The notes beneath the pieces are model-generated. The model was not told the origin of the DNA. It worked only from the letters and a program-made list of their open reading frames with translations, and did not search any database. From Eledone cirrhosa (lineage: Eukaryota), in the NCBI GenBank assembly GCA_964016885.1, contig OZ024743.1, positions 102,424,001 to 102,488,000 on the forward strand: DNA of 64,000 bases, given 5' to 3'. Below, piece after piece: positions 12,743-64,000 of this stretch. A program made the position numbers and the translations under genes. Positions within the stretch are counted from its first letter, which is position 1. The number at the start of each line of letters is the position of its first letter.

Positions 12743-12799
<57 letters not shown>

Positions 12800-12910: not shown

Positions 12911-12965
<55 letters not shown>

Positions 12966-15336: not shown

Positions 15337-15367
15337 GATACATATGTCTATATATATATATATATAT

Positions 15368-22290: not shown

Positions 22291-25200
22291 ATGACCCTCC
22301 CAAAGTATAACAATATCGGTTTCAACACACGATTTCAGATAAAGAATCTTGCTAAACAAATTCAGAAACGAAATATCGTAAGCCTTAGCCAGGCTAACAA
22401 GATACTGAAAACCACCATGTTCTGTTGTCTACGAAAAACCATAACATCTCGACAACTACACTTCATAAAACTGTGCACCACTTCTAGAATCTACACCAAC
22501 ACCATCAATACCGACGTTAGAAGATTACAACTCACCAAAAAACAAGCAGATAGGCTAAAACGAACTTTAATTCTAAACATAAAAAAGAAGATCTATAGAG
22601 AATTAAGTCATCAAGAAAAACTAAAGCGTAACCTAATAGATGAAATATCTAAAATCACCACACCAGCAGAAAAACTAACATTTATAAGCCTTATACGACC
22701 CGAAGAACAGTACATTACTCAAGAATGTAATAAGCACTTTAACAGAAAATTAAAGTGGCTTAAACAGGCAAAGCTAAATCGGGATACTATAGAGTATACC
22801 AATAGATATCCCGACAAAATTGACGGTATCAACATGGCCGACACCTCATTATCTGAAGAGTTCAACAATGAAAATACCAACATTTATGGAAACACGAAAA
22901 TAGATAATAATGAAATGTCTGTGTTACGTTTGCCACCCAAATTTGCGACATTCAAGAAGGTAAATATGATTAGTTGTCTGTCAGAAATAGAAAAATCATT
23001 TACGAAACTACGCTGGAGCATCAAAAACAAAAACAAAAGCAACAATATACGCACACACATATACAACACACATCCCAACAACAACAGACACACAGACACA
23101 AACAATAACAACAACAATAGCAACATACCCAGATACAATACCAACAATAGCAACATACCCAGATACAACAGACACGCAGACACAAACAACAATAACAACA
23201 CACACGGAGACAACAATAACAACAACACACACATCAACAACAACAACAACAGCAACATACCCAGATACAACAACAACAGACACGCAAACACAAACAACAA
23301 TAACAACACACACAACAACGATAACACACACACACACGGAGACAACAACACACATCAACAACAACACACATCAACAACAACAACACACACACATTCAATG
23401 CCTCTCACCACCACTACAATCTTAACAAACACACAGACACAGAAAACAAGTAATGACAGTAGCACAGAAATCAGAGAAATAAGAGAAAGTAATAGGATTA
23501 AAAGGAGTAGGGAGACTAAGGACAAAGAGAATAACCAAGACGAACACACAGACACACAAAATAGGGTAGATAACAACATTGAGCCAGTGGAAAGAGACAG
23601 GAGTAATTATGAGAGACATAGAAACAACCATGAAGCTGAGGCTGCTGCTGTTGGTGGAAATAGAAACAACACAACTAACAATAGCGCAAGTACACATAAA
23701 GCAGCAGCCTGGAACTCTCCGTTTTATAACCACTCCGATAAATCATTCGACCTACGACGAGTCCACGCCACGACTTTGCCATTTAACAAACGCACGCAGT
23801 TGCCGTCGCAGGTCGATGAACAAACAGAAGCACAATTTAGTATAGCTAAATCCGAACTTAGAAATATTATAGAACAGTATAGCAAGAAGCATAATAGAAT
23901 AGAGGCCCAGCAACTGGGAGAAGAATCTGCAAATGGCTTGCGTAAGCTCATGCAGCGCTCGCGTAATGGAGAGATAGCATGCTTTCCAACAGACAAGTCT
24001 GGCAGAATGTCGGTTGACAGCCTGCCAAACTACATCCAGGCAATGCAACCCCACATCACTAACACAAGAGAGGTAACACCACAGGAGCATGAGGACAGAG
24101 AAAAAACCCTCAATGCCCATATGGTGATGTGGACAAATATAATGCAGCCCAACAAAAGGACTGCCAACAACTTCCAGGCCTGGAACAATGACGTGCCGGC
24201 GTTGTATGGGCTTCGAAAAGACCATAAAACGGGCTGGGACCCTGTCGCGGGACCACCAACACGGCCAGTCTGTGGGGCTAACATTGCTAGTAACTACAGA
24301 CTGTCCTACTTCCTCTCCCTGATCATACGCCCCATCATTGAGATGTCCCCAGATGTGTGTGACAGCACGGAGGACCTCCTCAGCAGAATCGACGCGGGTA
24401 ACCGATCTGGGGACCTAACAAACTGCATAATAGGCAGTATGGATGTTGTGTCCCTGTATCCATCTATTGACGTGGATTTTGCTGTGGAGAAATGCGTCGA
24501 AATGATCAGCGAGAGCAAGGTTGAGTTCCGTGGGATTGATACCAGTGAGCTGGGACTTCTACTTAAGCTTACCCATAGTAATAGTTACCTAGACACTTAT
24601 GACCTTAGCAACCTGTGCCCTACAAGACCAGCAAGAGGCAGACCACCTACCATTACCTCAATGGCCAAGAAAACCCACACAGATAGATGGAACGGGTGGA
24701 CCAGAGCCATACGGACACCCGAAAACCACGATGAACTGAAGAAAATGATTGCACATGCGGTAGGGGCCAGCATAAAATTAACCCTTAAGGAACATATGTT
24801 CAAATTTAATGGTAAAACATATGCCCAAGAGGAAGGAGCAGCCATTGGTGTTAGCATTGCAGGCGACATAGCTAACTTGTTCATGGTATGGTGGGACAGT
24901 AGACTTAAACAAAAACTTAAAGAACAATTAGAAGACAGATTAACCCTGATAATGTACTCCCGCTACGTAGATGATATAAACATCGTAGTTAAGACACCCC
25001 CACTAAAGAACAGTCAGGAACCTGAGAAAAACACAATGGAAAGCATCCAGCAAATAGCAAACTCCATCCACCAGAGCATTAGAGTTACTATAGACTACCC
25101 AAGTAGACACCCCAACCATCGATTACCTGTACTAGACACAGAGCTCTGGTTAGATACTATTAACAACCAAAAACAAATCCTCCATTCCCATTATGCCAAA

Positions 25201-26094
25201 CCCATGACTTCCAAACATCTGATCCACCGAAACTCGGCCATTTCGGACCATACCAAAATCAACATACTGATTGCGGATTTGATACGGGTGATGAGAAATG
25301 TGTCCCGCATGTGCAACCCCGAAGAACTAGAGAGACACATACAACACTTCATCCACCGTATGCAGTTCTCTGGCTACAATCAGAGAGATAGAATCAGAGT
25401 GTATAAAGGAGCCAGAACCAAATGGGAAAAAATGGTAAATAATGACATAAATGGGACCTGCCCCTTGTATAGGAGCAAATTTTGGAATAGAATAGAAAGA
25501 ACTAAGAACAAGGCCAATAGAATAAACTCATGGTATGATAGCAATAAATACCAGAGTGTAATGTTCATCAATACAACCCCTAGAGGTGAACTAGCCTACA
25601 AATTTAGAAGGGCCCTAAAGAAACATAATCTCAATATTAAGATAGTAGAAAGACCTGGTACCTCCGTAAAAACACTTATTAGCAAGACATACCCGTTCCA
25701 AAGACCCTCATGTATAGATAAGAAATGTATAACCTGTAAAATAAGCCCCCATATTAACTGTAAAACTAGAAATGTAGTATATAGCATAAGATGTACTGAG
25801 GGACAATGTAGAAACAAAAATATAGTGTACATAGGTGAGACAGCTCGTAGTATAGGGGAACGAATAAATGAACACTGGCGAGACCTCCAAGATAGTAAAG
25901 AATCATCTGTGCTCTACCAACATGCTAAGATAGAACACAGGGGTAAATTAGAGAGCATAGAAATAAAAATAGAATCCACACACAAGAAAGACGCAATGTT
26001 TAGGCAAATTACAGAGGCAGTAAGCATAAAAGAATTAAAACCAAAATTAAATAGAAAATATGAGTGGAACAGCAACATCACAACTTACAATTAA
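22291..26094 (+). CDS. PLE2 reverse transcriptase / GIY-YIG endonuclease protein (1267 aa from first ATG; frame open from 22267)
   Basis: TDKSG, LYGLRKDHK, RPVC, GSMDVVSLYPSID, QEEGAAIGVSIAGDIANLFM, RYVDD, LPVLD; Cys linker CIDKKCITC; VVYSIRC...YIGETARSIGERINEH; EAVSI...LNRKYEW. Confidence 0.93.
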   Translation: MTLPKYNNIGFNTRFQIKNLAKQIQKRNIVSLSQANKILKTTMFCCLRKTITSRQLHFIKLCTTSRIYTNTINTDVRRLQLTKKQADRLKRTLILNIKKKIYRELSHQEKLKRNLIDEISKITTPAEKLTFISLIRPEEQYITQECNKHFNRKLKWLKQAKLNRDTIEYTNRYPDKIDGINMADTSLSEEFNNENTNIYGNTKIDNNEMSVLRLPPKFATFKKVNMISCLSEIEKSFTKLRWSIKNKNKSNNIRTHIYNTHPNNNRHTDTNNNNNNSNIPRYNTNNSNIPRYNRHADTNNNNNTHGDNNNNNTHINNNNNSNIPRYNNNRHANTNNNNNTHNNDNTHTHGDNNTHQQQHTSTTTTHTHSMPLTTTTILTNTQTQKTSNDSSTEIREIRESNRIKRSRETKDKENNQDEHTDTQNRVDNNIEPVERDRSNYERHRNNHEAEAAAVGGNRNNTTNNSASTHKAAAWNSPFYNHSDKSFDLRRVHATTLPFNKRTQLPSQVDEQTEAQFSIAKSELRNIIEQYSKKHNRIEAQQLGEESANGLRKLMQRSRNGEIACFPTDKSGRMSVDSLPNYIQAMQPHITNTREVTPQEHEDREKTLNAHMVMWTNIMQPNKRTANNFQAWNNDVPALYGLRKDHKTGWDPVAGPPTRPVCGANIASNYRLSYFLSLIIRPIIEMSPDVCDSTEDLLSRIDAGNRSGDLTNCIIGSMDVVSLYPSIDVDFAVEKCVEMISESKVEFRGIDTSELGLLLKLTHSNSYLDTYDLSNLCPTRPARGRPPTITSMAKKTHTDRWNGWTRAIRTPENHDELKKMIAHAVGASIKLTLKEHMFKFNGKTYAQEEGAAIGVSIAGDIANLFMVWWDSRLKQKLKEQLEDRLTLIMYSRYVDDINIVVKTPPLKNSQEPEKNTMESIQQIANSIHQSIRVTIDYPSRHPNHRLPVLDTELWLDTINNQKQILHSHYAKPMTSKHLIHRNSAISDHTKINILIADLIRVMRNVSRMCNPEELERHIQHFIHRMQFSGYNQRDRIRVYKGARTKWEKMVNNDINGTCPLYRSKFWNRIERTKNKANRINSWYDSNKYQSVMFINTTPRGELAYKFRRALKKHNLNIKIVERPGTSVKTLISKTYPFQRPSCIDKKCITCKISPHINCKTRNVVYSIRCTEGQCRNKNIVYIGETARSIGERINEHWRDLQDSKESSVLYQHAKIEHRGKLESIEIKIESTHKKDAMFRQITEAVSIKELKPKLNRKYEWNSNITTYN

Positions 26095-26390
26095 GGACAA
26101 AATGAAAACACACACACACATATATAAACAACTTACAATTGAAAACACACACAAAATGAAAACACACACAAGACAAAATGAAAACACACACACACATAGA
26201 ACAAACAACCAACCAACAATAAATAAATAAATAAACAAACAAATATAAATATAAAAATAGAAAAATGAACACAAACACACACAGACACCCGGATGTGGCG
26301 CATGCGCAAACTGAGCACGCAACCCACACACAAACAAAATGGCGTAGGATAGAAGAAAGGAAAGGCACAGAAACGAAGAAAGAAATCCCC

Positions 26391-26435
26391 AGTCACTGAA
26401 GAGGTCACAGAGTGTGTGACGAAAGAACTATGACT
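26391..26435 (+). ncRNA. Minimal type I hammerhead ribozyme (PLE2 3' UTR)
   Basis: agtca-CTGAAGA-g-gtcaca(gagtg)tgtgac-GAAA-gaac-TA-tgact. Confidence 0.82.
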
Positions 26436-26593
26436 ATATATATATAAACAACTATCTGGTTGTGGAACCAACCAACCAACCAGAAATTTATAAATTTGTA
26501 AATTTATAAATATATATTAAATTAAATTGAAGTGAAAGCAACTGGTGCGTGTGTTTCTTATTGGCAACATGACCCTCCCAAAGTATAACAATA

Positions 26594-29065
<2,472 letters not shown>

Positions 29066-29157
29066 ACGAAGGAAATGTGGTAAGGAACCAGGTGGACCAT
29101 AACGCACCAAAGTACTCAATACTTGAGGTAGTAGAGTGGGTAATAGGAACCAGTAAG

Positions 29158-29251
29158 ACCCCGACAGCTGAGCTCAAGCCGTTTCGACGGCTAATTCTGG
29201 ACTAAATGAACATTTATCCTGGTATTTAAATAGCCGATCTTCTCAAGGGGT
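29158..29251 (-). ncRNA. Hammerhead-like ribozyme with variant core (PLE3)
   Basis: acccc-TTGAGAA-gatcggcta...tagccgtc-GAAA-cggct(tgagctc)agctg-TC-ggggt: three stems and a GUC site, but non-canonical CUGANGA box. Confidence 0.55.
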
Positions 29252-30363
29252 AATTCCATATATGGTCAAAGTGATTGTCAAAAATCAGTAGTAATTCTGT
29301 GGTTGCAAATTAGTAGGGGAGATGGTGGCTAAACCTGCCAGTAGGAGAAAGAGGGGAGGGGGTGGAGTAGACCCAATCAAGCGTTGGTAGTGCCAGCTAC
29401 AGCTGGGCATGAGGTCAAAGAAGATACAGGGGAGGGGGAGGGGGAGGAAGTCGGAACGGTAGGTAGAACAATGGGGGGTAGAAATAGGAAAGAAAAAATA
29501 CTGAGAGTGAAGAAAAGCAAATAAGTGTAAAGAAAAAAGTAAAGTAAATTAAATTCTACGACCTAGGTGTCAGGCTCTTGTTAGGCGAGAATAAAAAGAA
29601 AGAAAGAAAGAAGTAAATAAATAAATAAATAAATAAATAAGGAAATAAGTAAAAGAACTAGGTGGGACGAATTAGGCAAGGACCCTTTTAAGAGGTATAA
29701 GTACGTAAATGATACGGTGACTGGTCAACAAAAGGGGCCAAAATACTAAAGAGACTACCACGAAATAAACAATAAAGGTTTCCATCCCGGGCCAGCAACG
29801 ACCCAGTGCAGCAAAGTGAACTTGTACGAGATAATAATTCTGAGTCCCGAGAAAAATATATACTAATGCTAACTCTAAAAGATCTAAAACAAGCTACATG
29901 AAAGTTCGTACGAAATAAAGGTAGAATACGGAGAAATAAATTCAGAATCCACCCCGCCCAGAAGAAAAGCGAAGCAAGAAATACTGAAACGAAAAAATAA
30001 GGCATAAGTGCCACTAAGAAATATAGAGGGCACAGAGAATAGTGGGAGTGGTCGGAAAAAGGGGGCAAGTATCCGGGGTCTAAGCCAACTGCTATAAAGG
30101 GCGCAGTCCGCCAAATCTATCAAAGACTAGGGGAGGGGGGAGGGGGGAGTGGGGGTACTAAGGCTACCTGGGGCCAAAGGGCAGCCTCGGGTGGGCGAGA
30201 AAAGACGCCGACAAAGGAGAAGAGCTGGGGTAGAAGGACAAAGGAGAGAGGAGGGAAGGAAATAAAGGAAGCGATAAAAGAATACAAAGAAGATCTTACG
30301 TCTTCCTTGGCAAGCAGGGGTTACCCATTGCAAAATCGGCAACTGGGGTGTTATAGCCCTAGT

Positions 30364-31641
30364 CTACCCCCTCGGGTCATTATGGGGTTTGAGGGCGAGG
30401 TAAGTCCTACGCAATCTATGTTTACATGCAGTAACCAGTTCATCTTTCTTGTTTAGGAGTTGGTCCGTCGAAAACAGCATTTGTAAAGTTTCCTCCGAGC
30501 ATAAATTGCACGGACGGCGTCCTCCCGTGTAAGAATTGGCTCTGGACAGTAATCTCCAAGTGAGATCATAGGTGATGTTGTTGTCCTTGAGGTCCCATAT
30601 GTGGCCCGAAAGTGTAGTGGCGTGACGCCGGGCCGGGTTTCGGAAGGTATGTCTATGTTGGTATAGCCGGGTTTTGAAGTCACATGCGGTAAGTCCTATA
30701 TAGGCTTTGTTGGAGGTATCCGTCCTCACGTTGCACTGGTAGATCACATTACGGTCTCTGCATCTATTGTCGAGTGGGCAAATAGATCTATCCGGGCAGT
30801 TACACCTCCTGGTCGGTTCTCCACTGCTATTTAGGTTATTTCTGCCATCGGGGTTGAGTTTTTTGTTGTTAGAGGAGACGATGTTTTGTGCGAAGTTTGG
30901 TGTAGTGCTGTAAGAGAGATTGATGGTATTTTTGTTAATTATGTTGTGGTAGCGGTGTTGTAATGGGAAGTGTTTTTCAATGAGCCTAAAGAATAGTTTC
31001 CCGATGGGAGTAGTCACCTCTGCGTTGTGGGGAGGATTGAACCATGTTACATTGCGTGAGCGGCGGTGTCTCCTGCTGGTTCCGCTAATGGGATCTGGAC
31101 AGTAGGATATTTCCTCTCGGAAACCACTCCGCTTGAGGGCCTGGTTGTAATAAGGCGCATGTTCATCGAATATCCGCTCATTAGCTGACAAACGGGATAT
31201 GCGGAGGGAGATGTTTTTGACCAGGTTGTTTGTGATGTTCCTAGGATGGTTTGATCGGTGGTGGATGTAGTGCAGATTGTCATTAGGTTTCCTGTATGGG
31301 TAGTACAGGTCGTTTTCGAGGTCGAGGGTTACGTCCAGGAAGTTTACTCGGGTCAGGGACGTTTGTAGGGTTATTTTAAATCCCCAGTCGCGGAAGAATC
31401 TGATTAATTGTTTCCGGACCCGATCTGTACTACTGGGGTTGTACCCTTTAAGGGTAAGGAGCCCATCATCACGGTACAATCCACCACCGAATGCAGGAAA
31501 CATATCAGTGAGTTTGGCTATTAGGAATAATCCTATAAGATCAGTGACCTCCGCCGAATCCGTGGCGCCCATGCTGACGTCGAAGGGTGAGTCGGGAGCT
31601 CTTTTTATCTATTTAGAGTCGTCAAAGAGTAAGACTGTCTT
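30364..31641 (-). pseudogene. PLE3 RT (motif 4 onward) and GIY-YIG, 5'-truncated, one nonsense codon
   Basis: MGATDSAEVTDLIGL, GLYRDDGL, NFLDVTLDL, CNC..CPL..C, VIYQC..YIGLT..FKTR; upstream KTVLLFDDSK*IKR has TAG at the position of the Trp in PLE1 (NEYWTR). Confidence 0.9.
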
Positions 31642-32133
31642 ATTTTGGCCCCTTTTGTTGACCAGTCACCGTATCATTTACGTACTTATACCTCTTAAAA
31701 GGGTCCTTGCCTAATCCGTCCCACCTAGTTCTTTTACTTATTTCCTTATTTATTTATTTATTTATTTACTTCTTTCTTTCTTTCTTTATTTTATTCTCGC
31801 CTAACAATAGCCTGACACCTAGGTCGTAGAATTTAATTTACTTTACTTTTTTCTTTACACTTATTTGCTTTTCTTCACTCTCAGTATTTTTTCTTTCCTA
31901 TTTCTACCCCCCATTGTTCTACCTACCGTTCCGACTTCCTCCCCCTCCCCCTCCCCTGTATCTTCTTTGACCTCATGCCCAGCTGTAGCTGGCACTACCA
32001 ACGCTTGATTGGGTCTACTCCACCCCCTCCCCTCTTTCTCCTACTGGCAGGTTTAGCCACCATCTCCCCTACTAATTTGCAACCACAGAATTACTACTGA
32101 TTTTTGACAATCACTTTGACCATATATGGAATT

Positions 32134-32227
32134 ACCCCTTGAGAAGATCGGCTATTTAAATACCAGGATAAATGTTCATTTAGTCCAGAATTAGCCGTCG
32201 AGACGGCTTGAGCTCAGCCGTCGGGGT
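32134..32227 (+). ncRNA. Hammerhead-like motif in the inverted PLE3 segment (GAAA mutated to GAGA)
   Basis: Reverse complement of 29158-29251 with two substitutions. Confidence 0.45.
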
Positions 32228-32239
32228 CTTACTGGTTCC

Positions 32240-32270
<31 letters not shown>

Positions 32271-32760: not shown

Positions 32761-33138
32761 ATAACTTTGAATAACTTTGAAATGTTTTGGCCAGTATTGG
32801 CCCAGGCCATGTCTAACTTAATAGCACCACCTGGCGAAGTCTTTCAATTCAGGATTTGGGCACCATGGCCCATTCGAGAAGAGAATTACTGTTTGCGGAG
32901 ACATATCCGGGTGTGGGTGGTTTGTCCGGGATTACTTGGAGGAATTTGTCCAAAGACTTCTTGAATTTTGTGTGGTCAGTTTCTGTTTTGACGTTTCCTG
33001 GTGTGATGTTGAAGAGAGCAGGGCCGATTGAGGTGAAATAATTGTGCCGTATTGTTGTTATGAGTTGCGATTTAGATTTTTGAATGGGACGGATAGCACG
33101 GGGCCCAAGCCTTGGGTGTATCTTGAAGGCGATGCCAA
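32761..33138 (-). mobile_element. CR1-group LINE 3' fragment
   Basis: ...GPALFNITP...[16 protein letters not shown]...SNSLLEW C-terminus typical of CR1-group ORF2; short tandem tail (TTCAAAGTTA)2. Confidence 0.75.
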
Positions 33139-33163
33139 CATATATATACATACATATATATAC

Positions 33164-34420: not shown

Positions 34421-34770
34421 AAAAACCACTCAACAGTCAAAAGTTTTCCTGGAGTTTCTAATATTATTCAAAATATTAACAAATGAACGATATTCCCATA
34501 ATGAAAATATATGCTTTATTATATATATTTCAAATGTATTGTGAACTTTTTTCAGATCGTCTTCATCAGATAAAATATATGATTTATATATGACATACCG
34601 CTACGCTCTTGATACTATATAATCAAGACCGTAGCGGTATGTCATATATCAAATCGTATATTTTATCTGATGAAGACGTACTGAAAAAACAAGACATTAC
34701 CTTTGAAATATATATAATAAAGCATATATTTTGATTATGCGAATATCCTTCATTTGTTAAAATTTTCAAA
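34421..34770. repeat. Palindromic element with twin outward-facing HHR motifs (34515-34574 minus, 34662-34721 plus)
   Basis: Imperfect ~145-bp arms around ~34617; each arm reads tttat-CTGATGA-...-GAAA-tatata-TA-ataaa. Confidence 0.72.
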
Positions 34771-34787
34771 AATATATATATATATAT

Positions 34788-35691: not shown

Positions 35692-36075
35692 ATATCTATC
35701 TATCTATCTAAGGCGGGTAAAATTCCCGAGATCCATGGACGAGTGCTCTCCAGCGGTCTCTGTCCCTCATTATCGCTGCCATGTCCTGCATCTCCAACAG
35801 ACCAGTGTCTGTCCTTAGTGTATCAACATACGTTAACCTTGGTCTTCCTCTTCTAGTGTGTACATGTAGGGGCTCCCACAGGAGCACTGAGTGCAATGTC
35901 AACTCTGGATGTCGGTGAGCATGTCCAGCCAACCTCAGTCTCCTCTGTGTCACTTTTGAGCTGACTTTTGGGATGCCCCCATACAGCTCTGAGTTTTTCA
36001 TCCTCAGTGTATACTGATTAATGTTCAGAGCCATCCTCAGCATTCTCGTGTAGCACCCATCCACCATCTGAGTGA

Positions 36076-36076
<1 letters not shown>
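35692..36076 (-). mobile_element. RTE-clade LINE 3' fragment
   Basis: DGCYTRMLRMALNI...ELYG..PKVS..V.QRRLRLAGH..RH...LLWEP....RRGRPRLTYVD...M.DR..WR; (TAGA)n tail. Confidence 0.85.
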
Positions 36077-36158: not shown

Positions 36159-36597
36159 AACAATGAGTTAAAGACTTAGTTAATAAATAATATTTCTGAG
36201 GAGTATTATGATAATAATAGTAGTAAACCAAAGATATATACTTTATATCATCAGTATTTATTTCATTATATATATTTCAGGGATGCGAAAATGTATGTAT
36301 AACATAAATCAGAAAATGCCCTTATCAGATGAAATACATATGAGATGTATAAATTTTCATGCTATAACAGCATCATCAAACTTGGTAAATCAATGACCGG
36401 CAAGTATATATTCTTGCCATTCAGATCGATGATGCTGATATATCATGAAACATTGTACATCTCATATGTATTTTATCTGATGAAAGCATGCTCTGATTTA
36501 TGTTACACATATATTTTTGCATCCCCGAAATATATATAATGAAATAAATACTGATGATATAAAGTATATATCTTTCGTTTATTACTATTATTATTAT
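36157..36597. repeat. Palindromic element with twin outward-facing HHR motifs (36261-36334 minus, 36471-36544 plus)
   Basis: ~170-bp imperfect arms (36211-36378 / 36428-36595); ttt(c/t)at-CTGAT(G/A)A-long stem II-GAAA-tatata-TA-atgaaa. Confidence 0.72.
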
Positions 36598-40399: not shown

Positions 40400-40640
40400 C
40401 CATATGTAAACCTGAACACATACACGTATATGTGATTGTGTGGATAAGATACCTTGCGGTATTTCTTTATGATCTATGTTCAAATTTCTCCCAGGTTGAC
40501 ATTAAAATTATTCCTTCCGTTGTCAATATATTGGGTTTAATAATATCAACCAAATACGTTGTTATGATTAAATTATTTGTGCGCAAAATGTTAGTAATAT
40601 GTTTAACATAAAAACTTTTATTGACCTGCAGCATAATAAA

Positions 40641-40826
40641 TAATTGTTTCTACTTCAGGCACAAGGCCATATCACCCAGTGCATTACTGGTACTTTATTT
40701 TATCGACCCCGTAAGGACGAAAGGCAAAGTAAACATCGGTGGGATTTGAACTCAGACCATAAAGGGACGTAACTGTGCAGGAAAGCATGGCGTCCGACTC
40801 TGTACCGATACTGCCAATCCACCGCC
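40641..40826 (-). mobile_element. tRNA-derived SINE with Nin-like central domain
   Basis: Minus strand TGGCAGTATCGG A-box, GAGTTCAAATCC B-box, ctttcgtccttacggggtcgataaaataaagtaccag core. Confidence 0.8.
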
Positions 40827-42254
40827 CTAATGTATGTTGCAGCATAATAAATAATATATTCCCCATGGTGATAGTTGTCAAACATATCCTTGTCTAAATA
40901 ACACGCTCATTAATTCATGAATTCACATCTAATTTGTATGATAGGGAAGAAGAGAGAATTTAATTCTTCAATTTAAAAAGAATGCTAATATAAAGTAAGC
41001 TGCTTCAGTGTATGTTTTTTAGTCTATGAAAATATTAAAGAAAAGTGTGCAGCATCTTTCAGCGGAATTTAAGTCACATATAGCATATGTCAGACGGTTG
41101 TGCTATCATCACTCCAAACTCACACTCCTCACCGTACCTGATATTTTAATTCCTTATATCTCAGCCAGTATTATGTAAACAATAAACCAATCCTATTGAA
41201 GAAGCACTGACTAAATTTACTCAGCGATTCTTGAAGATTTTCTATAAATGTTTACATAGAAATCTTCGTTATTTAGTTTTTTTTTTAAACATAAGTATTC
41301 AGTGAATGTTTTCTAACATTGGCATAGTACCAATAGCCAAAAATGTGTTGGGGAATTTTGTCGATGATTAAATAAAGCTTAGTACATGATTGATCATTTT
41401 GATTTCTTTTGACTACGGAGATTGCCAAGTTTTTCAAGAGGAGTGTAATGCCTAATTCAATCTATTTCACTTCATTACTAGTAGATATGTGAGCTAATGA
41501 GAAGACATCAATGCTATCGCTCGCTCTCTTGGAAACACATCCGAACTTCCTATATAGTGTAAGATCCATTAGATAATGTAGTCTTAGATATCTCTAGAAT
41601 GAAAATATTTTCCCTACAAGAATATCTTTTGAGCTGTTTCCTGCAGGTTAAGGGACAACATATATGTTGGTTCACATATGCTTGGTGTTTGTTATTGGCA
41701 CGGAATGACTGAAATACAAAAACTACCTAAATTGGACTAGACATGAACTTGTACAAGGATATAACTAAATACTAAACTGTATTTAGTTTGTCTCTTTATA
41801 ATATTAATACTGGAAGTATTTGTTTAATATTGAAATCAATATATCCACAATATATTGATGCCTGGTTTATATCAATTTATATCCAATTCGAATAACTGTA
41901 TATTCAATTCTTATTCGTTCTTAAACGAAAACGAAAAAAAGAACATTAGGTTAAATGGACTGCAATTCGTGTTACATCTGTTGCCTTTAGGAAATATTCA
42001 TCATTTAATGTCCAGTATATCTCACTAAACCATACACTTTATGTGAAGTAATTTCTTTGGATTTCTTTATACAATATAATCGTTAACATCTGTAAATCGG
42101 ACGGAAAACAATATTCATAGACTTCTTTCTGAAAAACGATATTTGTTTGGTCTTCAGCCAAATTTCTCTGACAGCTTATTTTGGTCACGCTGTTTCAGAA
42201 GCCAAATAAATATGTATTTAAATACATAATGACCGATACTATTTCTGGTAGGCA

Positions 42255-43150
42255 ATAATAATAATTGTTTCTAATTTAGGCACAAGGCCAGCAATTACTC
42301 AGTTCATTACTGGTACTTTATTTTATCGACCCCTAAGGTAGGCAATAATAATAATGATTTCTAGTATAGGCACAAGGCCAGTAATTAGGGGGTGGGGGAG
42401 TCGAATAAATCGACCCTAGTACGTTACTGGTGCTTTATGTTATCGACCCCGTAAGGATGAAAAGCAAAGTTAACATCGGGGTGATTAGAACTCAGAACAT
42501 AAAGGCCATAACTCTATGCCTCAAAGCATAGTGTCCGACGCTCTACCGATACTGCCAACGAAAATAATGGTTTTTTTATATAGGCATAAGGTCATCAATT
42601 TTGGTGGAGGGGAAAGTCGTTTAAATCGACACAAGTGCGTGACTGGTACTTTATTTTGTCGACCCCGTAAGGATTAAAAGCAAAGTTAACCTCGTCGGGA
42701 TTTGAACTCAGAATGGCAAGGGCCCTAACTCTATGCGTCAAAGCATACCAATACTGCCAATGCAGATAATAATAGTGATAATAATTGTTTCTACTTTAGG
42801 CACAAGGCCAGCAATTAACCAGTGCATTACTGGTACTTTATTTCATCGACCCCGTAAGGATGAAAGGCAAAGTCAACCTCGGCGGGATTTGAACTAAGAT
42901 AATAAAGGGACGTAACTCTATGCCTCAAAGCATGGCGTCCGACTCTCTACCGATACTGCCAATCCACCGCCAATCCATCGCCCCTAATAGTGATAATAAT
43001 TGTTTCTACTTTAGGCACAAGGCCAGCAATTACCCAGTGCATTACTGGTACTTTATTTCATCGACCCAGTAAGGATGAAAGGCAAAGTCGACCTCGGCGG
43101 GATTTGAACTCAGATCGTAAAGGGACGTAACTATGCTAGAAAGCATGACA
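42255..43150 (-). mobile_element. Head-to-tail cluster of about five copies of the same Nin-like SINE
   Basis: Repeated ggcacaaggccagc...ctggtactttatt..atcgacccc.taaggatgaaa.gcaaagt..acctcggcgggatttgaactcag units. Confidence 0.85.
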
Positions 43151-43841: not shown

Positions 43842-44594
43842 ATGTGTGTGTGCGTGTGTGTACGTGAGTGTGTGTGCGTGCGTGAGCGTGTGTGTGTGTG
43901 TGTGTGTGTGCGTCAGTGTGTTTGTGTGTTTATTACCATATACTTATATATAGATATGCTGATTACATATGCATTAAGAAGATTAAATACTTTAGGAATT
44001 AAAGCAGAAATAAATACTAAATATATATAGACATACGTCTTTGCATAACATGGAAGACAAAAACCTGAAAAACGAAAGGCAAATACATTTAATGTTAACG
44101 AATGTGGGTTGGTATAGCTAGAATATATATATAGATCCTCTTTTGCTATGAAGAAGAAAGATATAATCGAATCGATAATTATGAATGAATATTATGAAGT
44201 ACTATTGTAGAATGTCGCCGTAACTTTTGCTTGATTATAATAGAAAGCAGCATTGTTATTAGATATTTTCCTTTTACCCTAGAAAAATCTATTTTCTACT
44301 GGAAATTTTAAAAAATCTTCTTACCACGTTTACTTCATTTTGTTTTCTTTACCATCATTTGTAGCCCTGCAGTGTTATGGGTTGATCAGCCAGGTATAGA
44401 TTTCAAATGTTTTTTGTCTTCATCAACATAGTTACAAATGCATATAAGTCAATTTCTGTTGTTTCCTATTCAACCTCCCACACCAGTAAATCCTCGCTGC
44501 ACATAATCTAGGATATATTGTTCTAAAATAGTTTTCGGATTTCTATCTTACAAAGCTCTGCAGTTTTGTATGAAGACAAATCAAGATAAAATAA

Positions 44595-44945
44595 ATTCAT
44601 AATTGTTTCTATTTTAGGCACAAGGCCAGCAATTAACCAGTACATTACTGGTACTTTATTTTATCGACCCCGTAAGGATGAAAGGCAAAGTTAACCTCGG
44701 CGGGATTTGAACTCACATCGTACCTCGGCGGGATTTGAACTCAGATCGTAAAGGGACGTAAAATTCATAATTGTTTCTACTTTAGGCACAAGGCCAGCAA
44801 TTACCCAGTGCATTACTGGTACTTTATTTTATCGACCCCGTAAGGATGAAAGGCAAAGTCAACCTCGGCGGGATTTGAACTCAGATCGTAAAGGGACATA
44901 ACTATGCTGGAAAGCATGGCGTTCGACCCTCTACCGATACTGCCA
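44595..44945 (-). mobile_element. Tandem pair of Nin-like SINEs
   Basis: Two units of the same consensus, the first with an internal duplication of acctcggcgggatttgaactca.atcgt. Confidence 0.85.
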
Positions 44946-46049
44946 TGACAAATAATACTAGTTATTTCTAGCATTGACATTGGGGGAAGACGAAAGTCTA
45001 TTATACTTAATAGTTCTATTAGTTCTTAATAGTCTATTATACTTAAATGGTTCTTTATTTTATTGATCTAGGAAGGATGAAAGGCACAGTTAATCTGGCT
45101 GAGACTTGAACTCAAGGCAAACACATTCTTAACTAAATACAGCACACATTTTATTTGACGCCTACTTATAATGCCAATACATATCACTACACCAAAGTAT
45201 CTGTACGACCACCACATTTAACCTTCTTGAAAAATAGTTATCCACAAAATATGGAGATATAAATTAAACAATGAACTGATGTTTTGCATTGTTTCACTTT
45301 TTTATTTCTCACTAACATTTCACAAACAATTCGTAATACAAGACATTCAGCTAATACATCGTAGAATTTAAATATATATTCAATAGATCTATTTGAAGCT
45401 TACAGTTCCTTTCTGTGAGAATATATAACCAAGTTACATTTGAATTTTCTTTATTCCCCCCCCCCCCCCCCCCCGGATGACGACAGTAGTGCAAATATTT
45501 TATGAATGCACTCAGTTTCCGAAAAATTCTTTTTATCCCTAGATAGTATGTATATTCTAAATTATATATGTTGTGATGTTATCAATTCAGTTAGATCACA
45601 AAACATTATATTAATTCATTTCGCCCTAAACACTTCACTAAAATATGAAATATTCATGATGTATCTTGATATATATATATATATATATATGAGTGTGTCT
45701 ATGTGTGCTTATGTATGTGTCCGTGTGTGTTTGCATGTATCACTTTATATATGAATTCAGATATAGACGTATTTCTATGTACGGTCTAAAAACACGCGAC
45801 TAGAAACTATATTTTGATTACATTCATCTCATCATATCTATTGAAATGCATTTATAGAAATATTCTATTTTTTAAAGCACTTTTGAAAAACCACTGACGA
45901 TGAATTTATTAGTATTAATCGTCATATATTCATCTTCATCTAACATTTCTTATGACCATACCATTCTATTTGGACTATTTTAACTGAACTATATTAATAA
46001 TTGGAATAAAATTAGTTTTATTAGTTCGTTTCTTCTTATTATTATTATG

Positions 46050-46175
46050 GTCTGAGCTCAAATCCCGCCGAGGTTAACTTTGCCTTTAATCATCACGGTG
46101 TTGATAAAATAAAGTACCAGTAATGCACTGGCTTAATTGCTGGCCTTGTGCCAAAAGTAGAAACAATTATTATTA
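46050..46175 (+). mobile_element. 5'-truncated Nin-like SINE
   Basis: ctgagctcaaatcccgccgaggttaactttgccttt...aaagtaccagtaatgcactgg...ggccttgtgccaaaagtagaaacaattattatt. Confidence 0.8.
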
Positions 46176-46822
46176 TAGTGTTGATAGCTATCAATTCTGT
46201 AGTCACATACGTTTTGCTTTAAAGGTATATCATGACATTTTCAAGATATACGTACTGTTTTCTTTCAGCATTAAAATCAACCCAACCATCTAACATTACC
46301 AGGGAACATAATCACAATTATGATTACTATGTTGCATAGACACGTATTCCGTCCACATACTTCTAAACAGAATTTCTCGACGTAATTTCACTGAAAAGGT
46401 ATGGGTTGACCTGATGCTGGGGAAAATGATACATGCTCGAGATACCATGCAGTTGGATCGAAACCTTGGCCTTCATGATTGTGAAACGAACTTCTTAACC
46501 ATTCGGTCATTCTATGTCTACTGGTTTACATTATAGATCAGATTATAACAAAAGAAAAACAGAATATACTATAACAATGTTTATTCAGTATGTTAGTGTT
46601 TTCCCTCTATTTTTTATTGTAAAATGCTTTTTACACAATATTCATAATGTGTTTTGTTTCACAAATACCACTTACAAATTAATCCCATCTCCATCATTTC
46701 CATTTCCAATATCTGCGCAATTTTATATTTCTCAGTAAGCTTGTACACTACATATAATTATGTAAATTTATTTAAATGGATGACTTGCAGTATTTTAATT
46801 CAATTTCTCTGAACATGACACA

Positions 46823-55908: not shown

Positions 55909-56799
55909 ATGTATGTACGTATTATGTATGTATGTATGTGTGTGTGTGTGTTAAAATGAATGTGATAATGAATGTTCACACACATAAATAACTGATAGTT
56001 TTAAAGTTAGAGGTTATTTTTTTAAATGTCTGGACGTTAACTTGCATCATTAAGGTGCTTGTGAATTGCCTTAGATGAGAAAGCTTTTGCCCACACGTTT
56101 CAGGAGAATTGCGTGACCCATGAAACAAACACAGAAGTGACTCCCCTTGAATAGTTACAAACTGACGTCTACAATGTAAAGAGGAATATGGAGAATTCTA
56201 GTGGAATTATGTTCTTGAATGTAAGGACTAGGTCGCGAATACTGTATAGATGACAAGATGACGAGTTGAACATTAACACTACATAAAAGATGTATTAACA
56301 AGATGTACTGTGTGTACATGCTGTTCAAAGTATGTTGTAGTGAATCAAAGATTTAAGATTAATAAATCTGATATCTAAGTATTATGTACGCATCATTTGT
56401 ATATCACATCATAAACATGTTGATAGGGTAGTAATCCACTAACCTAAAGTTGAACTTAGCAAGAGATTATCAAGGTTGTATCGAGAAATGGGAGATTAAT
56501 GAAGCAATGATAATCAATGAAATATTACAAAAGCAGAAGATTTCTCGCTTTGTCAGTCCTCAAGTGTATAGTATTACGTGAATTCACGGACGTTTGTACC
56601 ACAGGTGCAGTTATAAACACGTAGCTAAGAACTTAGCTTCATACCTAAATAGTTCTATAGTTAATCCCAATTTGTGAGCGAGAATTTACTCAATAGTTTT
56701 AGGTTGACCTGTGAAGCTGAGTGTAATCCCGTTGTATATATATATATATATATATATTGGTAAACGGAATAGAAAATGCTGACAAATTGTTCACAAATT

Positions 56800-57522
56800 G
56801 TTCCTTTCAATTCTTGCCACCCTAGACACGTTAAAATTAATATTCCCTACAACTTAGCCAAGAGAATCTGTACTATAGTCTCCAATAAAAACACCTGCTA
56901 CTTACGGCTACAATGACTAAATGACACACTCATAGGCAGGGACTACGCTGCATCACTAATTGACAATGGAATCCAACGTGTGTTGAAAAAGGACCATAGA
57001 ATGAACCAAATCCTACGAACACACGATATCATAAAAAGCAAAAGACAATCTAAGTCAATGAAAAACATCCTAACACTTGCCAAAGTACTGCCAACCACAA
57101 CAACGAAACCCACAGTAAAAAAATGCGATAGACCCAACTGTGGAATTTGCATCAACCTAATAGAGGGTTCGGAATTCTATTTCAAAGAAGGACAACGTTT
57201 TATAGTAAAACACAATTTCACATGCGCATCAGAAAATCTAATATATGTATTAACTTGCTCAGGTTGTCGAGAACAATACATAGGCCAGAACAAAAACAGC
57301 CTCCACCAACGCATGACTGTCCATAGATCCCAAATTAAAATACGAGAATACAGGAAAATACCACTGAGTGAACACATTGATACCTGTGCCGCCCAAAATC
57401 ATCCCAACTTCAGAATCTTTTCCCTCTACAAATTTAAAGATAATGCCACCCACACCCAGCGCATCAGCAAGGAATCGTACTTTATTAACAAATACGGACT
57501 CCGTCTAAACACTTCTCCCTAA
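56800..57522 (+). pseudogene. PLE4: Neptune-like Penelope thumb, Zn-linker and GIY-YIG fragment
   Basis: FNSCHPRHVKINIPYNLAKRICTIVS (one TGA), in frame with KCDRPNCGIC...FTCASENLIYVLTCSGCREQYIGQ...QRMTVH...ESYFINKY..LN. Confidence 0.85.
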
Positions 57523-58027
57523 GACGAACCCACAACATACACAGGTCAACATACATTCCTGCGTCAGCATACATCTCTGCCCACATGTAAACACAGTGGC
57601 ATACGTGGGCAAACATGTTCTGTGGTGCAACACGGGTATACACAGGTTTGCATGCCTTTTGGTGTCTATAGATATAAACGTGCCGACACACACACATACA
57701 TGGGCGCGCACATGCATTGCGCACTGGTGGGCACGTACATATTTGTGCACAGGTGTTCCAATACGGCAGGGCCTAATGGGTTCCCCTTGCAATGCGTACA
57801 ATCTGGACACACTCCAGATACATATTTGTGCACAGGTATACAATTTATGGGCACACTCCAGATACATGTGTACAGTTTGGGCACAGGTATTCCAATACGG
57901 CAGGGCCTAATGGATCCCCCTTGCGGTGCGTGCAATCTGGACACTCACACACACCTTGGTATTATGCCAATACTATGTATCATTTCACACCTTTTATTGT
58001 TAAGGTTTTTGGTGTTCTATTGGGAGA

Positions 58028-58086
58028 GTCGGTTTTACTGAAGATGTCGAATGGTGTACACGATTTTAACAGAAATAAATACTGAT
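58028..58086 (+). ncRNA. Degenerate HHR remnant in the PLE4 3' UTR
   Basis: gtcggtttta-CTGAAGA-tgt...aca-GAAA-taaatactgat; stem III and cleavage triplet absent. Confidence 0.35.
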
Positions 58087-58192
58087 CCACCCACACACAC
58101 ACAACACATTCTCTCACACACAAACACGCACATATATACACACACACATACAGACGCGTACATTAACATACAAAGAGACACACACACACACA

Positions 58193-58227
<35 letters not shown>

Positions 58228-58907
58228 TTCTCCGTATAAGACAAGAGCTGAAAAAATATCTTTTAACATGTTAAAATATCCCCCACGCACTTACAGACAC
58301 ATTCCTACTGACCATCCCTCTACCACGAATTACTCTGCTACACACACACACACACACACACTTGTCTTAATAGGCATCCGAACTGTCAACAGGCTGCGGT
58401 TCGCACACACATCCCTGCTGACCATTATCACAACAACGAACCTCTTTGCTGCTACTACACTCACACACACACATATCTGTTGTGAGAGACTTATTTCTCA
58501 GTCAGCCGACACAAACCTACATTTGGCGCAAAATCAATTTTTTATATTCACATGACCTCTACCGACCAATCAAAATTGTTTTGACCACAAGAATTTTTGC
58601 AACACGAATTGGCGCAAAACTTATTTTAATACCGCTGGAGCCACTTTTTTAACATAAAAACAGGTAGAATTCCCAAAACTAATCAGATCAGAGCAAACAT
58701 CACGGACGCTCTATCTCAAAATTATTTTTGAAAAGCATTAGAAATGCGCAACCGGTAAAACTTAAAACCAAAACTTAATACTAACCAATACTATTACTAA
58801 TTATCACTTATTCCTAATTAAACTATTTTTCACTGTGAACAGTTTGTCAGCATTTTCAATTTCGTTTACCAATATATCATAACTTGTGTGTTACACCTCT
58901 ATTGTTT

Positions 58908-58946: not shown

Positions 58947-59507
58947 TACCCGGACAAATCAGGAAACAGTAGATGTGGACAGAAGAGGAATTTATTGTAT
59001 ATTCTATCCTTAACATTTATCTTTGCACAATTACATAACAATCTACCTTCGCTGACTACATTATAAAATGTTCATTTATATGCATTATGTGTCTGGAATT
59101 GCACTTCATTAGAAACAGAATTAACAGAGAAAAGGTTGCTCACTTACTGCTGACAAAGCTATATATAAATTTCATTTTGGTATATTTGGAAAATCGGACT
59201 CAGAATATAATATATAAATAACAAAAATAGTGAACAAAAAATAATAATAAATAAGTACAGGAATAACAATAATTATACCAAGTATAGATACTAGATTTGT
59301 ATGCGGAGTGGGGGCGATTTACAGGCTAAATATCCAATGAGAAGATCAGTAGAGTTGTAAATGGAGCAAGGTTCAAATTGAGAACTATGGCTAGTCAGAG
59401 AACCTATTGTAATAATATACTATAGAATGAGGAAGAGGAAGAAAGAAAGAAGTAAAAAGATAAATAGAAAGGGAAGACGTGTATATATATATATACATAT
59501 ATATATA

Positions 59508-60031
59508 TAAAATAAAATAATTAAGTCAAATATTTAAAATTTGGCTTCGTTTATTAAAGGTGTACTGCTATATATATTTCGGTGACAGCCATCCTTGGCT
59601 GTGACCTCTTAAGGCAGTCCGAATTGGTGTGGTAGAGACAGGTATACATGTTGTTGAAGTGTTTAACTCCGTCAATACTCCGATATGCCCAGTTCTTGGT
59701 GGGGGTGTTATTTCTTTGAAGAACTGGAATCAGAGAAATAACAACCCAACCAGAAACTGGGTATATCGGAGTATTGAGGGAGTTAAACACTTCAACAACA
59801 TGTGTACCTGTCTCTACCACACCAATTCGGACTGCCTGAAGAGGTCACAGCCAAGGGTGGCTGTCATCGATATATATATAGCAGTACACCTTTAATAAAC
59901 GAAGCCAAATTTTAAATATTTGACTTAATTACTTTATTTTACATTACTCCGGAGTAACCAAACCAACCTGAGTACTTCGTCGAGTGGTCCAATCTGCATA
60001 CTGAGGTGTCGGTAAACAACCAACATATACT

Positions 60032-60035
<4 letters not shown>
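59508..60035. repeat. Palindromic element with twin outward-facing HHRs (59564-59618 minus, 59831-59885 plus)
   Basis: ~208-bp arms 59511-59719 / 59730-59938; consensus actgc-CTGAAGA-ggtcacagcc..ggctgtcacc-GAAA-tatata-TA-gcagt; both ends run into (TA)n. Confidence 0.85.
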
Positions 60036-60126
<91 letters not shown>

Positions 60127-60156
60127 ATATATATATATGTGTATGAGTGTGTAATA

Positions 60157-60202
<46 letters not shown>

Positions 60203-60208
60203 CGTGTG

Positions 60209-60252
<44 letters not shown>

Positions 60253-60587
60253 TGAAACAAAATGAAAACGAAATTTCATTTCTCACTCTTAGTATGGCAC
60301 TTACTTAAATGTAAGTATGCATGTATACGTACATACATATATGTATACAGACGTACAGTAGCATGCACATATATATATATATATATACATATATACATAC
60401 ATATGCATATATATATACATATATACATACATATGCATACAGGTACACATACATATATGCACGTATCAGTTTAGCGGCGCTTATTATAACGTCGCTTTGT
60501 TCGTTTGTAAACAAACTGAACAGCCGGAATTTATGCCATACGGTGTTAAGGCAACCACGTCACCTTTTTGTTCAACACTGACACAGG

Positions 60588-60632
60588 AACGATGTACTAG
60601 TTTCAAGCTTGTTAGCTATCATCAGCACCGTT
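60588..60632 (-). ncRNA. Minimal type I hammerhead ribozyme
   Basis: aacggtg-CTGATGA-t-agct(aaca)agct-t-GAAA-ctag-TA-catcgtt. Confidence 0.82.
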
Positions 60633-60705
60633 TACCCATCTGCCAGATAGTTGAACGGTCGAAAGTATATACTTTCCTTATGAAAATTAACGGCTGAGCA
60701 GCCTA

Positions 60706-60713
60706 ATTTGCAT
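60706..60713 (-). promoter_or_regulatory. Octamer motif ATGCAAAT upstream of the retrozyme HHR
   Basis: Conserved with copy A; followed by TAATTTTCATA and TATATA. Confidence 0.4.
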
Positions 60714-61063
60714 ATTGAGTGAGTTAAATCGGTCAGGCATACCGAAAACGATAAATTGAAACAAAATGAAAACGAAATTTCATTTCTCACTCTTAGTATG
60801 GCACTTACTTAAATGTAAGTATGCATGTATACGTACATACATATATGTATACAGACGTACAGTAGCATGCACATATATATATATATATATATACATATAT
60901 ACATACATATGCATACAGGTACACATACATATATGCACGTATCAGTTTAGCGGCGCTTATTATAACGTCGCTTTGTTCGTTTATAAACAAACTGAACAGC
61001 CGGAATTTATGCCATACGGTGTTAAGGCAACCACGTCACCTTTTTGTTCAACACTGACACAGG

Positions 61064-61108
61064 AACGATGTACTAGTTTCAAGCTTGTTAGCTATCATCA
61101 GCACCGTT
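61064..61108 (-). ncRNA. Minimal type I hammerhead ribozyme (second monomer)
   Basis: Identical to 60588-60632. Confidence 0.82.
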
Positions 61109-61345
61109 TACCCATCTGCCAGATAGTTGAACGTTGCCTTAACACCGTATGGCATAAATATTTATATCAACTATAATCATGTGTGTATATGAGGTTGAAA
61201 TAAGATGAATATGGTCCACCAGAGATATCACCACCTTAATTGACATAAAGTAAAATAAATGTCCTTAAATTCTGATGGAATCTTCGCGCGCCGTCCTTAT
61301 ATACGGCGTGTCATTGATACTTTAAACCTGCAAGAATAACCCTTC

Positions 61346-61411: not shown

Positions 61412-63734
61412 ATAAACCCATGTACTGGAATGGTTTTCTATTTACCAACCTCGAAAGGATGTAAAAGGCAGGTTTGTCCTCGGCAGGATTTGAACTCAGA
61501 GTTGGGGTCAAATAATGAGACATGTTTAATCTGACGCTGCACCTTATCTGTCAATTCACTGGCTTCTTGCAGTAGTTTAAAAGTTCGCGTTAAAATCACT
61601 TGAATTCATTTTAGATTACTATTTGCACTACGCTGGGAGTGGAGGCAGATATGGCTGTGTAATTAAGAATATTTTGTTTTCCTTCACAACTACGTGGTTT
61701 TCAGCTTCGTAGTTACACGTTTTTAATAATAACCACAAATCGACCAAAGCTTTTGGTAGACAAAACCTGGTAAATATCGGAGTATCCTTTCTTAATTTTA
61801 TGTGGTAGACTTGATCTGCCGCACGGTTTAGAGCCATAACTTTGTTTTGCAATACTTTAGTAAAGTACACTTTGTTGAAAACACTCAAGCAAGGGTTTTT
61901 TGTCTGAGGATAACATTCCGTGCCCTCCCACATGTATGGTAGGATGTGAAACGTTTTACAAGCGCTGCCATTTCTATTCTAATTAAGCAATATTACAAAT
62001 ATATACAATATACAAAAGTGTTGAAAACAGAACTTATAGTTAACATGTTATCTACAACTGGTATAGTTTTATTTTTGAACAACTTTAGTTCCTTTTATTG
62101 AAGGCTGGCTTTCGTATGATATAATGTTCATTAAATCTAAAATATGGAATAAATCAAATATTATCAATATTCCCGTATAAACGGTATAACAAATTATGGT
62201 TCCCGCAACTAAAACAACGATAATGTAAACTGTTATTATCTCTATGAAAAAATACTATAACTTATTATTAACCCATTTAAATATTATCAAAATTGAAAAT
62301 GTATAGAAGTTTTCAAAATACGTTAATCAATTTAATCAATTGACTGCACTTCTGTCTTTTTGTTGCCTTTCAAATATATTAGCTTTCACATAGGCTTTCT
62401 ACCATTGATATCATTGACTCCAAGCGAACAACTACCAACATATTGATTTTCTAAGTAACTTCAGAAAAATAAATTTCATATTTATTCCTTCTTTTCTTGA
62501 TGTACAACGTTTCATTCAATAAATGTTTGTTCTGTATCAGGTAGCGAGTTATTATATTTAGCAGCCACTAACAAACAATAGGAAGCTATCCATCTCTCTA
62601 GCTTGAAATTCCAGCATTAATGTCACTCTAGAAACAGTCTATTACGGAGAATATAATGTTAAATCATTGCTTATTGACATTGTTTTAGCACTGGGTTTTC
62701 TCAACAAATTATCTTCAGTAACAACTACTGTAATTGTAATAATTTCATAAGGATGAATTGTTAGAAATATATTCAAAGAATTCCATTCGCTGTTAGCAAG
62801 AGAATTTGGTCTTAGTTATTCTAACATTGCATAATTGTCGTATGCGACATCTACTTTTATTTGCTATCTTATATTCCTAATTATTGGTTTTTGCAGAGGC
62901 AAAGGAGCAATGCTTTAAACTGTGATAAATATAGTATTTAGAATTGACTCCTTTATATTATTCCAACGTATTTTACTGTAGAGTGTTTCATATACTATTT
63001 ATGATAATACCATCACTAAATTTCACTACATTTCTAGTACTTCAACATTCTTAAAGGTAATTGGATTGAGTTCTGTGTCCAGCTTAGTGGAGTTGTAGTT
63101 ATTTCAGAAGGAGGAAAACTTCAAAATTATAATATAGAAAATTGACATTTTCAGAAAACCTGCCGTCTATATATTCGCCAATGAAAAAAGATGAAAGCAA
63201 TTATATAACATACAAAATTTTATTTTTATTAGGTTTATAAACTTTAAATATTTTATGTTTCTTCCTAGCAGAAATTTATCTACATTTTCTAAATTCAGAA
63301 ATGGGCAACTATTTTTATATATCAGTTTTACTTATGATATATTTTTTGAAGGTTTTATCGATTTGATTTAATAGTTTTATTTCCATAATCCCATCAATCT
63401 CTTAATTTTTTTGTCTTTATTGTATTATCTATCTTTAGATATTGTTGCTATTTCGGTGGGATATTTGACAAAAAATTTGGTTCTGAACTTTTTCATCTTT
63501 CAATATAGCTAGGATTTGTCTTGTTGCTATATCAATGGTTTTTCCGGCAAGATATTATTGCTTTAAAAACATTTTATTTTATTACTTACTTTTTATTACT
63601 ATTATTAAAAAGGTATTTCATGGATTTGTTATATATATTATTATAAGAGCTTTTAGAACACCATAGGACATCTTTTCGAAGACTTGGAACGAACTATATT
63701 AATACCATCATCTCTTATCAAAATGCATTATTAT

Positions 63735-63843
63735 TTCTGAGTTCAAATCCCGCCGAGGTTAACTTTGCCTTTCATCCTTACGGGGTCGATAAAATAAAGT
63801 ACCAGTAATGCTGGCCTTGTGCCAAAAGTAGAAACAATTATTA
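63735..63843 (+). mobile_element. 5'-truncated Nin-like SINE
   Basis: ctgagttcaaatcccgccgaggttaactttgcctttcatccttacggggtcgataaaataaagtaccagt...tagaaacaattatta. Confidence 0.85.
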
Positions 63844-64000
63844 TGAGAATAATAAGCGCAACGAATGTCTAATGCGACCTCTTTGGTTTCGCTTAAGCCT
63901 CATTTCTAGACATAATGTCTGTCATTTCCCTTCAATCTTTGTTGAAGTATATTTTGATATTTATTATAAAACATTGACATTCTGATATCTTACCAATATC

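Follow-up and report, generated by a model that had tools for sequence, protein, structure and literature searches.

A putative tandem retrozyme in Eledone cirrhosa bears part of a PLE signature at its insertion ends

Introduction

Which enzyme placed a tandem hammerhead repeat beside a (TA)n tract in the genome of Eledone cirrhosa, and from what form of RNA, is the question raised by the locus described here. Both the enzyme that spreads animal retrozymes and the copying of their circular RNAs have been proposed in print but, in the literature available to us, not shown by experiment. Cervera and de la Pena (2020, PMC7229834) proposed Penelope-like elements (PLEs) as helpers together with reverse transcription of circles, and Li, Clavereau and Pollet (2026, 10.64898/2026.07.22.740005) describe animal retrozymes as non-autonomous PLE derivatives using PLE enzymes. 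The retrozyme-PLE partnership is thus already proposed in print, and the view of the initial annotation, that a PLE partner is presumed but poorly demonstrated, now understates the record, since the 2026 preprint argues for it from co-occurrence and pLTR homology. We performed a structural analysis of one insertion and of its neighbours within a 64,000-nt stretch of contig OZ024743.1 (the window). Our reading, to which we give a probability of about 0.6, is that the retrozyme would have been inserted by a PLE reverse transcriptase/GIY-YIG enzyme acting in trans and primed from both sides of the DNA cut.

Results

The element lies on the minus strand and comprises 1.8 near-identical units. These carry two type I hammerheads of the same sequence, with 476 nt between the predicted cut sites. 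Read along that strand, it consists of a 27-bp arm (61159-61133), a unit (61133-60751), a spacer (60750-60658), a second unit (60657-60247) and then (TA)n. The upstream unit (60751-61133, minus) is 5'-truncated, 383 bp long and pLTR-like, while the downstream (3') unit (60247-60657, minus; 411 bp) stops at the TA tract 348 nt beyond its own hammerhead cut site; the 93-bp single-copy spacer between them (60658-60750, minus) completes the monomer. The two repeated parts (60247-60657 and 60751-61133) differ by one substitution in 383 aligned bases and by a 28-bp length change in their TA/CA-rich middle, which is why the insertion looks young. As the initial annotation had it, two identical hammerheads are indeed present 476 nt apart, with C3 at 61101/60625 on the minus strand and predicted cleavage residues at 61071/60595. 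Hammerhead 1 occupies 61061-61113 (minus), with its core at 61101-61095 and a predicted cut after 61071; hammerhead 2 occupies 60585-60637 (minus), with its core CUGAUGA at 60625-60619 and a predicted cut after 60595. Both have the catalytic core CUGANGA...GAAA...UH and three stems: an open stem I of 7 bp plus 3 bp, a stem II of 4 bp on a U.U base, and a stem III of only 2 bp inside the palindrome ACUAGU.

We identify the ribozyme by its intact core and by its covariation with a sister element, because Rfam gave no hit at gathering thresholds in the 64-kb window and its best match was weak (HH9, 18.5 bits against a gathering score of 52, E 0.21), a score that is a library threshold and not a defining biochemical property of hammerheads. 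The miRNA hits in the same Rfam search were discarded as microsatellite artefacts. Against the sister, 33 of 34 cells are paired and 6 of 17 pairs are changed on both sides, in a comparison of two sequences only; 6 of 500 shuffles scored as high, and slid controls were 35-53% paired. We take this as good evidence that the hammerhead is a maintained structure. The weak stem III does not form in the minimum free energy fold. Similarly weak axolotl hammerheads are described as cutting better as dimers (PMC7229834), and in Xenopus only one of nine dimers was reported to be cleaved in vitro (10.64898/2026.07.22.740005). The U.U-based stem II matches 14 of the 26 Hydra-clade rows in File S2 of PMC8557442 and is also found in the axolotl retrozyme HHR_Amex2 (PMC7229834), and it is therefore not diagnostic. 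The predicted cut-to-cut monomer (60595-61070, minus) is a short noncoding sequence of 476 nt and 36% GC, hence below 50%, whose longest sense ATG open reading frame has 48 codons. With at least two consecutive units, each carrying a type I hammerhead, the element is very probably a non-LTR retrozyme with predicted self-cleavage. Folded as a circle, the monomer gives a z of -7 that is mostly owed to a TA/CA hairpin, and we do not count it as support.

The sister is a retrozyme-like element at 1264-1775 (plus), 59 kb away, homologous across spacer and ribozyme (z 25.6). This dispersed element of the same design is a 467-bp unit in front of which stands an exact 45-bp repeat of its own 3' end (period 467); it has one hammerhead (core at 1517), which keeps its core through the six double-sided pair changes, and TA on both sides, so that it too is a partial tandem ending in TA. 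Its end lies about 64 nt upstream of that of the studied retrozyme, before the U runs described below, an offset that falls within the 60-137-nt end offsets of three PLEs in the window, PLE1-3. The spacer of the studied element holds an octamer (60713-60706), a conserved second box (60689-60679) and a TATATA (60671-60666), for which a promoter role is inferred; octamer and second box, upstream of the ribozyme, are conserved between the two subfamilies. Three U4 runs cluster round the 3' end of the unit (60772-60745 and 60268-60259, minus), which together with the octamer and TATA resemble a Pol III cassette; such a cassette would conflict with read-through multimers. A dispersed repeat of about 130-200 bp, partly tandem and probably a SINE, also occurs in the window (40633-40826, 42247-43147, 44593-45114, 46041-46176, 61431-61500 and 63727-63844).

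Sequencing data may extend the family beyond the window. Of 22 runs listed, 18 contain part of the stretch and 8 contain half its words or more; no RNA run containing it is among the 22, a result with no bearing on expression. Of four runs analysed further, two Hi-C runs gave no reads, which does not count as a test. In run X1, 4983 contigs match the element at very high summed depth, although depth is not copy number and the run may come from another individual or species; run X4 has two contigs, one of which, at 470 nt, covers the monomer. Both runs that contain the element have the head-to-tail joint 61134 to 60659. X1 depth is zero over the inversion and the right flank, and no strand-change joint is found among the four joints listed. 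Among 8 of the 109 rows of loose contig ends, one (34 contigs) has a TA-leading consensus near 60750, with an agreement of 0.63. Both units in the window read G at 61002/60526, where X1 (509812 of 509816 depth) and X4 read T. The shared G is as expected from one template copied twice, provided that the runs represent the family in this genome; since X1 and X4 may derive from different individuals or even a different species, the G may not be private to this copy. A pattern for the element found no copies in the metagenome contigs scanned and none in the viral contigs scanned.

The tandem state of the family in other runs could suggest that the copy arose at the DNA level, by local duplication or because break repair captured a piece of satellite, reverse transcription playing no part, and the 2026 preprint (10.64898/2026.07.22.740005) favours local pLTR amplification. 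We regard such an origin as highly improbable: the copy is an isolated insertion of 1.8 units that joins TA cleanly, it has a dispersed sister of like design at a distance of 59 kb, and the ribozyme is conserved.

Two statements made from the outset about the ends of the insertion stood up to analysis. The 3' end is fused to (TA)n (tract 60034-60249), where chance would place a boundary 3 nt or less from a TA cluster in about 0.7% of cases (61 clusters in the window), and the 5' end carries a 27-bp inverted internal segment (61133-61159, plus) that reproduces 61031-61005 or 60555-60529 without a mismatch (as reverse complement, 27/27, E 6e-8). The presumed target, a (TA)n/(TG)n tract at 60034-60246, also takes the right arm of a noncoding fold-back at 59505-60033 whose 215-bp arms are 93% identical, whose two ends are both in TA and which has a one-sided tail of about 89 bp; it includes a decayed hammerhead-like core at 59836.

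The position of the 3' end within the RNA carries most weight. It sits 348 nt beyond the nearest predicted cut, inside the ribozyme-defined monomer, which rules out a linear cut-to-cut monomer as template and leaves a circle or a multimer entered internally. Internal entry is a known property of PLE reverse transcriptase, which initiates internally at AT-rich targets in vitro (PMC11167929). The same assay found ribozyme cleavage dispensable for PLE insertion, and a linear uncut multimer fits this end as well as a circle does. It is quite possible, if somewhat short of even odds, that a PLE helper used a linear read-through multimer, or that the element is an internally deleted non-autonomous PLE with a pLTR tandem, cleavage and circles being irrelevant to insertion. 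Unprocessed RNA was the dominant PLE substrate in vitro (PMC11167929), head-to-tail non-autonomous PLEs are known (MRC1, PMC8557442), 24 of 57 Xenopus families match known repeats, with 21 of those 22 repeats being PLEs (10.64898/2026.07.22.740005), and the insertion is just 1.8 units long. Weighing the other way are the strong covariation, which indicates that the ribozyme is maintained, the abundance of retrozyme circles in coral, mussel and axolotl (PMC7229834) and the shared G, which fits one template read twice, although a homogenised donor array would also explain it. We rate a circular template at even odds.

A further trait of the ends is a short repeat. ATAAAT is present at both edges (60247-60252 and 61154-61159, both plus), and each copy is also element sequence: the left copy, a candidate target-site duplication with microhomology, is the last 6 nt of the main arm, and the right copy forms the final 6 nt of the inverted arm, beyond which lies an AT-rich non-repeat flank. 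AUUUAU and AUAAAU each occur once in the unit, the first marking the end of the main arm and the second that of the inverted arm. A 6-nt match of this kind exists at 1 of 476 positions of the monomer; were a 2-nt overlap enough for priming, the figure would be 1 of 58 AU steps. The test is post hoc and concerns a single insertion. In PLE1-3 and the neighbouring fold-back, such two-sided symmetry spans just 2-4 nt, and at the six PLE ends examined TA-type junctions overlap the target by 2-4 nt. The two-sided repeat is likely explained by a cut with a 6-nt stagger whose two overhangs both annealed to the RNA, and it is more likely than not a true target-site duplication. Putative stems begin 2 and 5 nt beyond the two retrozyme ends, where the ACTC/GAGT motif is absent.

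A short duplication and a microhomology-primed inversion are also the footprint of L1 twin priming, and a short 5' inversion with target duplication is what L1 can likewise leave. This raises the question of whether an RTE- or CR1-like LINE protein mobilised the RNA as it would a SINE. Two fragments, at 35708-36076 and 32764-33139, which we take to be LINE-like, also adjoin TA tracts, so that fusion to (TA)n is not PLE-specific in the window and we rejected it as a PLE mark when taken alone; atlas look-ups of these fragments were weak, one naming an endonuclease-reverse transcriptase at 0.93 and the other no protein. A transcript could terminate at the three U4 runs, none of which is more than 25 nt from the 3' end, and LINEs are listed among possible helpers (PMC7229834). 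However, the junction has no templated poly(A) or simple-repeat tail, the template running on past it as non-repeat, unrelated sequence in the tandem; a transcript ending at the U runs could not span 1.8 units; and the sister ends about 64 nt upstream, before those runs. Moreover, short duplications accompany PLE insertions (PMC3846280), and a duplication alone does not point to a LINE. We consider LINE mobilisation very unlikely, and a PLE helper likely on the evidence of the ends.

Comparison with the PLEs in the window qualifies the parallel that had been drawn. All four PLE insertions have a 3' TA and a 5' inversion, as the initial annotation proposed, but the geometry is shared only in part. 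PLE1 (2799-13944), PLE2 (19629-26594) and PLE3 (29066-32242) have arms of about 4.3, 2.5 and 0.6 kb with both outer ends in (TA)n; only PLE4 (15364-17567) has a short arm, of 74 bp, which starts 97 nt from the inner junction and whose end is not in TA. PLE4 is the real analogue of the short arm of the retrozyme, at 97 nt against 102 nt from the inner junction. The end of the 27-bp retrozyme arm is separated from the main end by about 254 nt and from the end of the sister by about 190 nt; it is not in (TA)n, and, unlike the arms of PLE1-3, the arm stops at no known family terminus. A partial tandem with a 5' inverted copy is a described PLE layout (PMC8557442), and the inversion is optional in PLEs. 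The retrozyme has the partial tandem forming a pLTR and a 3' end that falls inside the RNA and meets an AT-rich/(TA)n target; it has no 5' inverted copy running to the element terminus, its arm falling short of it. The PLE signature of the insertion, as read from its structure, is thus only partial. Mobilisation by PLE machinery stands as the most likely route through the 3' end internal to the monomer, while the TA fusion and the inversion, on which the claim had leaned, are weaker support than stated.

It could be argued that the insertion was originally a canonical two-armed one, that a later deletion took away a long inverted arm together with the outer TA tract, and that the 6-bp repeat is coincidence. 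Long palindromes are prone to deletion, and PLE1-3 are two-armed with both ends in TA. On the other hand, the arm ends at the sole site complementary to the last 6-7 nt of the other end, the insertion looks young at one substitution in 383 bases, and PLE4 has a comparable short arm; we find a deleted arm unlikely.

The PLE1 and PLE2 proteins had been suggested for trans-mobilisation assays, but neither can be named as the helper. In 24 comparisons with the ends of PLE1-3 and with two fold-backs in the window, the unit showed no homology (z at most 2.4), and we rejected naming either one. PLE1 and PLE3 have Hydra-clade motifs, and PLE2 and PLE5 have the CX4CxxC linker; these clade assignments rest on motifs because Pfam named only one of the four PLE proteins (GIY-YIG). 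PLE1 has an intact-looking Hydra-type frame of 830 codons (6437-8929, minus) and a 3' UTR of several kb that is rich in microsatellites. A hammerhead core was found neither in PLE1 nor in PLE3, although all Hydra elements are reported to have one. PLE2, which is of Neptune/Nematis type, has a frame of 1278 codons without interruption (22258-26094, plus) that includes an N/T-rich insert, a minimal hammerhead at 26396 and two arms that are 100% identical over 1945 bp, which makes it very young and a candidate active element. Copies of the PLE2 family (85% identity), as well as short fragments, all stop at one site or close to it (15364, 26594, 34784 and 34118), a 3' end that is fixed within the window. 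In the PLE5 fragment (56752-58877), a 44-bp inverted copy of the apparent 3' end adjoins TA, forming a short but canonical arm. Two further noncoding fold-backs lie at 34461-34775 and 36230-36571, the first with a hammerhead core in each arm (34569, minus; 34667, plus).

Discussion

The ends of this single retrozyme copy most likely point to one PLE protein acting in trans, which would have cut at the edge of the TA tract and used both DNA ends as primers on a single RNA, giving arms of 1.8 units and 27 nt. Under this reading, a donor array would give transcripts that span several units, possibly started at the octamer/TATA block in each unit. The hammerheads, probably as dimers via the ACUAGU palindrome, would release the 476-nt monomer, which would probably be circularised. 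The enzyme would then cut the edge of the (TA)n tract with a 6-nt stagger. One DNA end would pair with the single AUUUAU 348 nt past the cut and be extended about 1.8 times round, leaving a partial tandem, while the other would pair with the single AUAAAU and be extended by 27 nt; joining of the two cDNAs would leave the inversion and the 6-bp duplication. In this complete form, with a 6-nt stagger, both ends priming on one circular RNA, and the second end pairing at a chance complementary site instead of the fixed second site of the family, the scheme is tentative and we would call it doubtful. If true, a single event would combine rolling-circle reverse transcription of a retrozyme with homology-guided twin priming by a PLE.

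Being one copy only, and one whose short arm is atypical, the insertion does little to strengthen the general claim, and the contribution proper to this locus is the two-sided 6-bp microhomology. Junction anatomy is a line of evidence that is unused in the available text of the two retrozyme papers (PMC7229834 and the 2026 preprint), and the copy, which is compact and has predicted priming sites, could serve as a substrate in the in vitro PLE assay that already exists. Subscription papers aside, our literature search found no paper on retrozyme insertion ends or on cephalopod retrozymes.

Among known systems, the closest are the metazoan non-LTR retrozymes (PMC7229834), which are likewise noncoding head-to-tail units with one type I hammerhead per unit and GC below 50%. 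The axolotl HHR_Amex2 shares the weak stem III and the U.U-based stem II, and in the same paper duplications of more than 4 bp are mentioned and a PLE helper is proposed, as in our reading. The differences are of size, since 476 nt exceeds the reported 170-400-nt circles and lies just above the 150-450-bp repeat range, and of evidence, since the available text of that paper holds no analysis of insertion ends, whereas the studied element provides junction anatomy. The 2026 preprint (10.64898/2026.07.22.740005) similarly relies on co-occurrence and pLTR homology, mostly in vertebrates, and the words "inversion", "target site" and "mollusc" are absent from its main text; here the evidence comes from junctions, with no pLTR homology. 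With an octamer and a second box upstream of its ribozyme, the retrozyme also recalls newt satellite 2, a hammerhead repeat reported to have an internal snRNA-type promoter (Coats 1994, as cited in PMC2220036). Finally, EN+ PLEs of the Hydra clade (PMC8557442) and Poseidon PAc (PMC11167929) share with the retrozyme the partial tandem, the 5' inversion, the (TA)n target, internal initiation and similar hammerhead core flanks. It differs from them in having no open reading frame, an arm that stops short of the family terminus, no sequence link to the PLEs in the window and a stem III of 2 bp, where the Hydra rows have 3-4 bp (PMC8557442).
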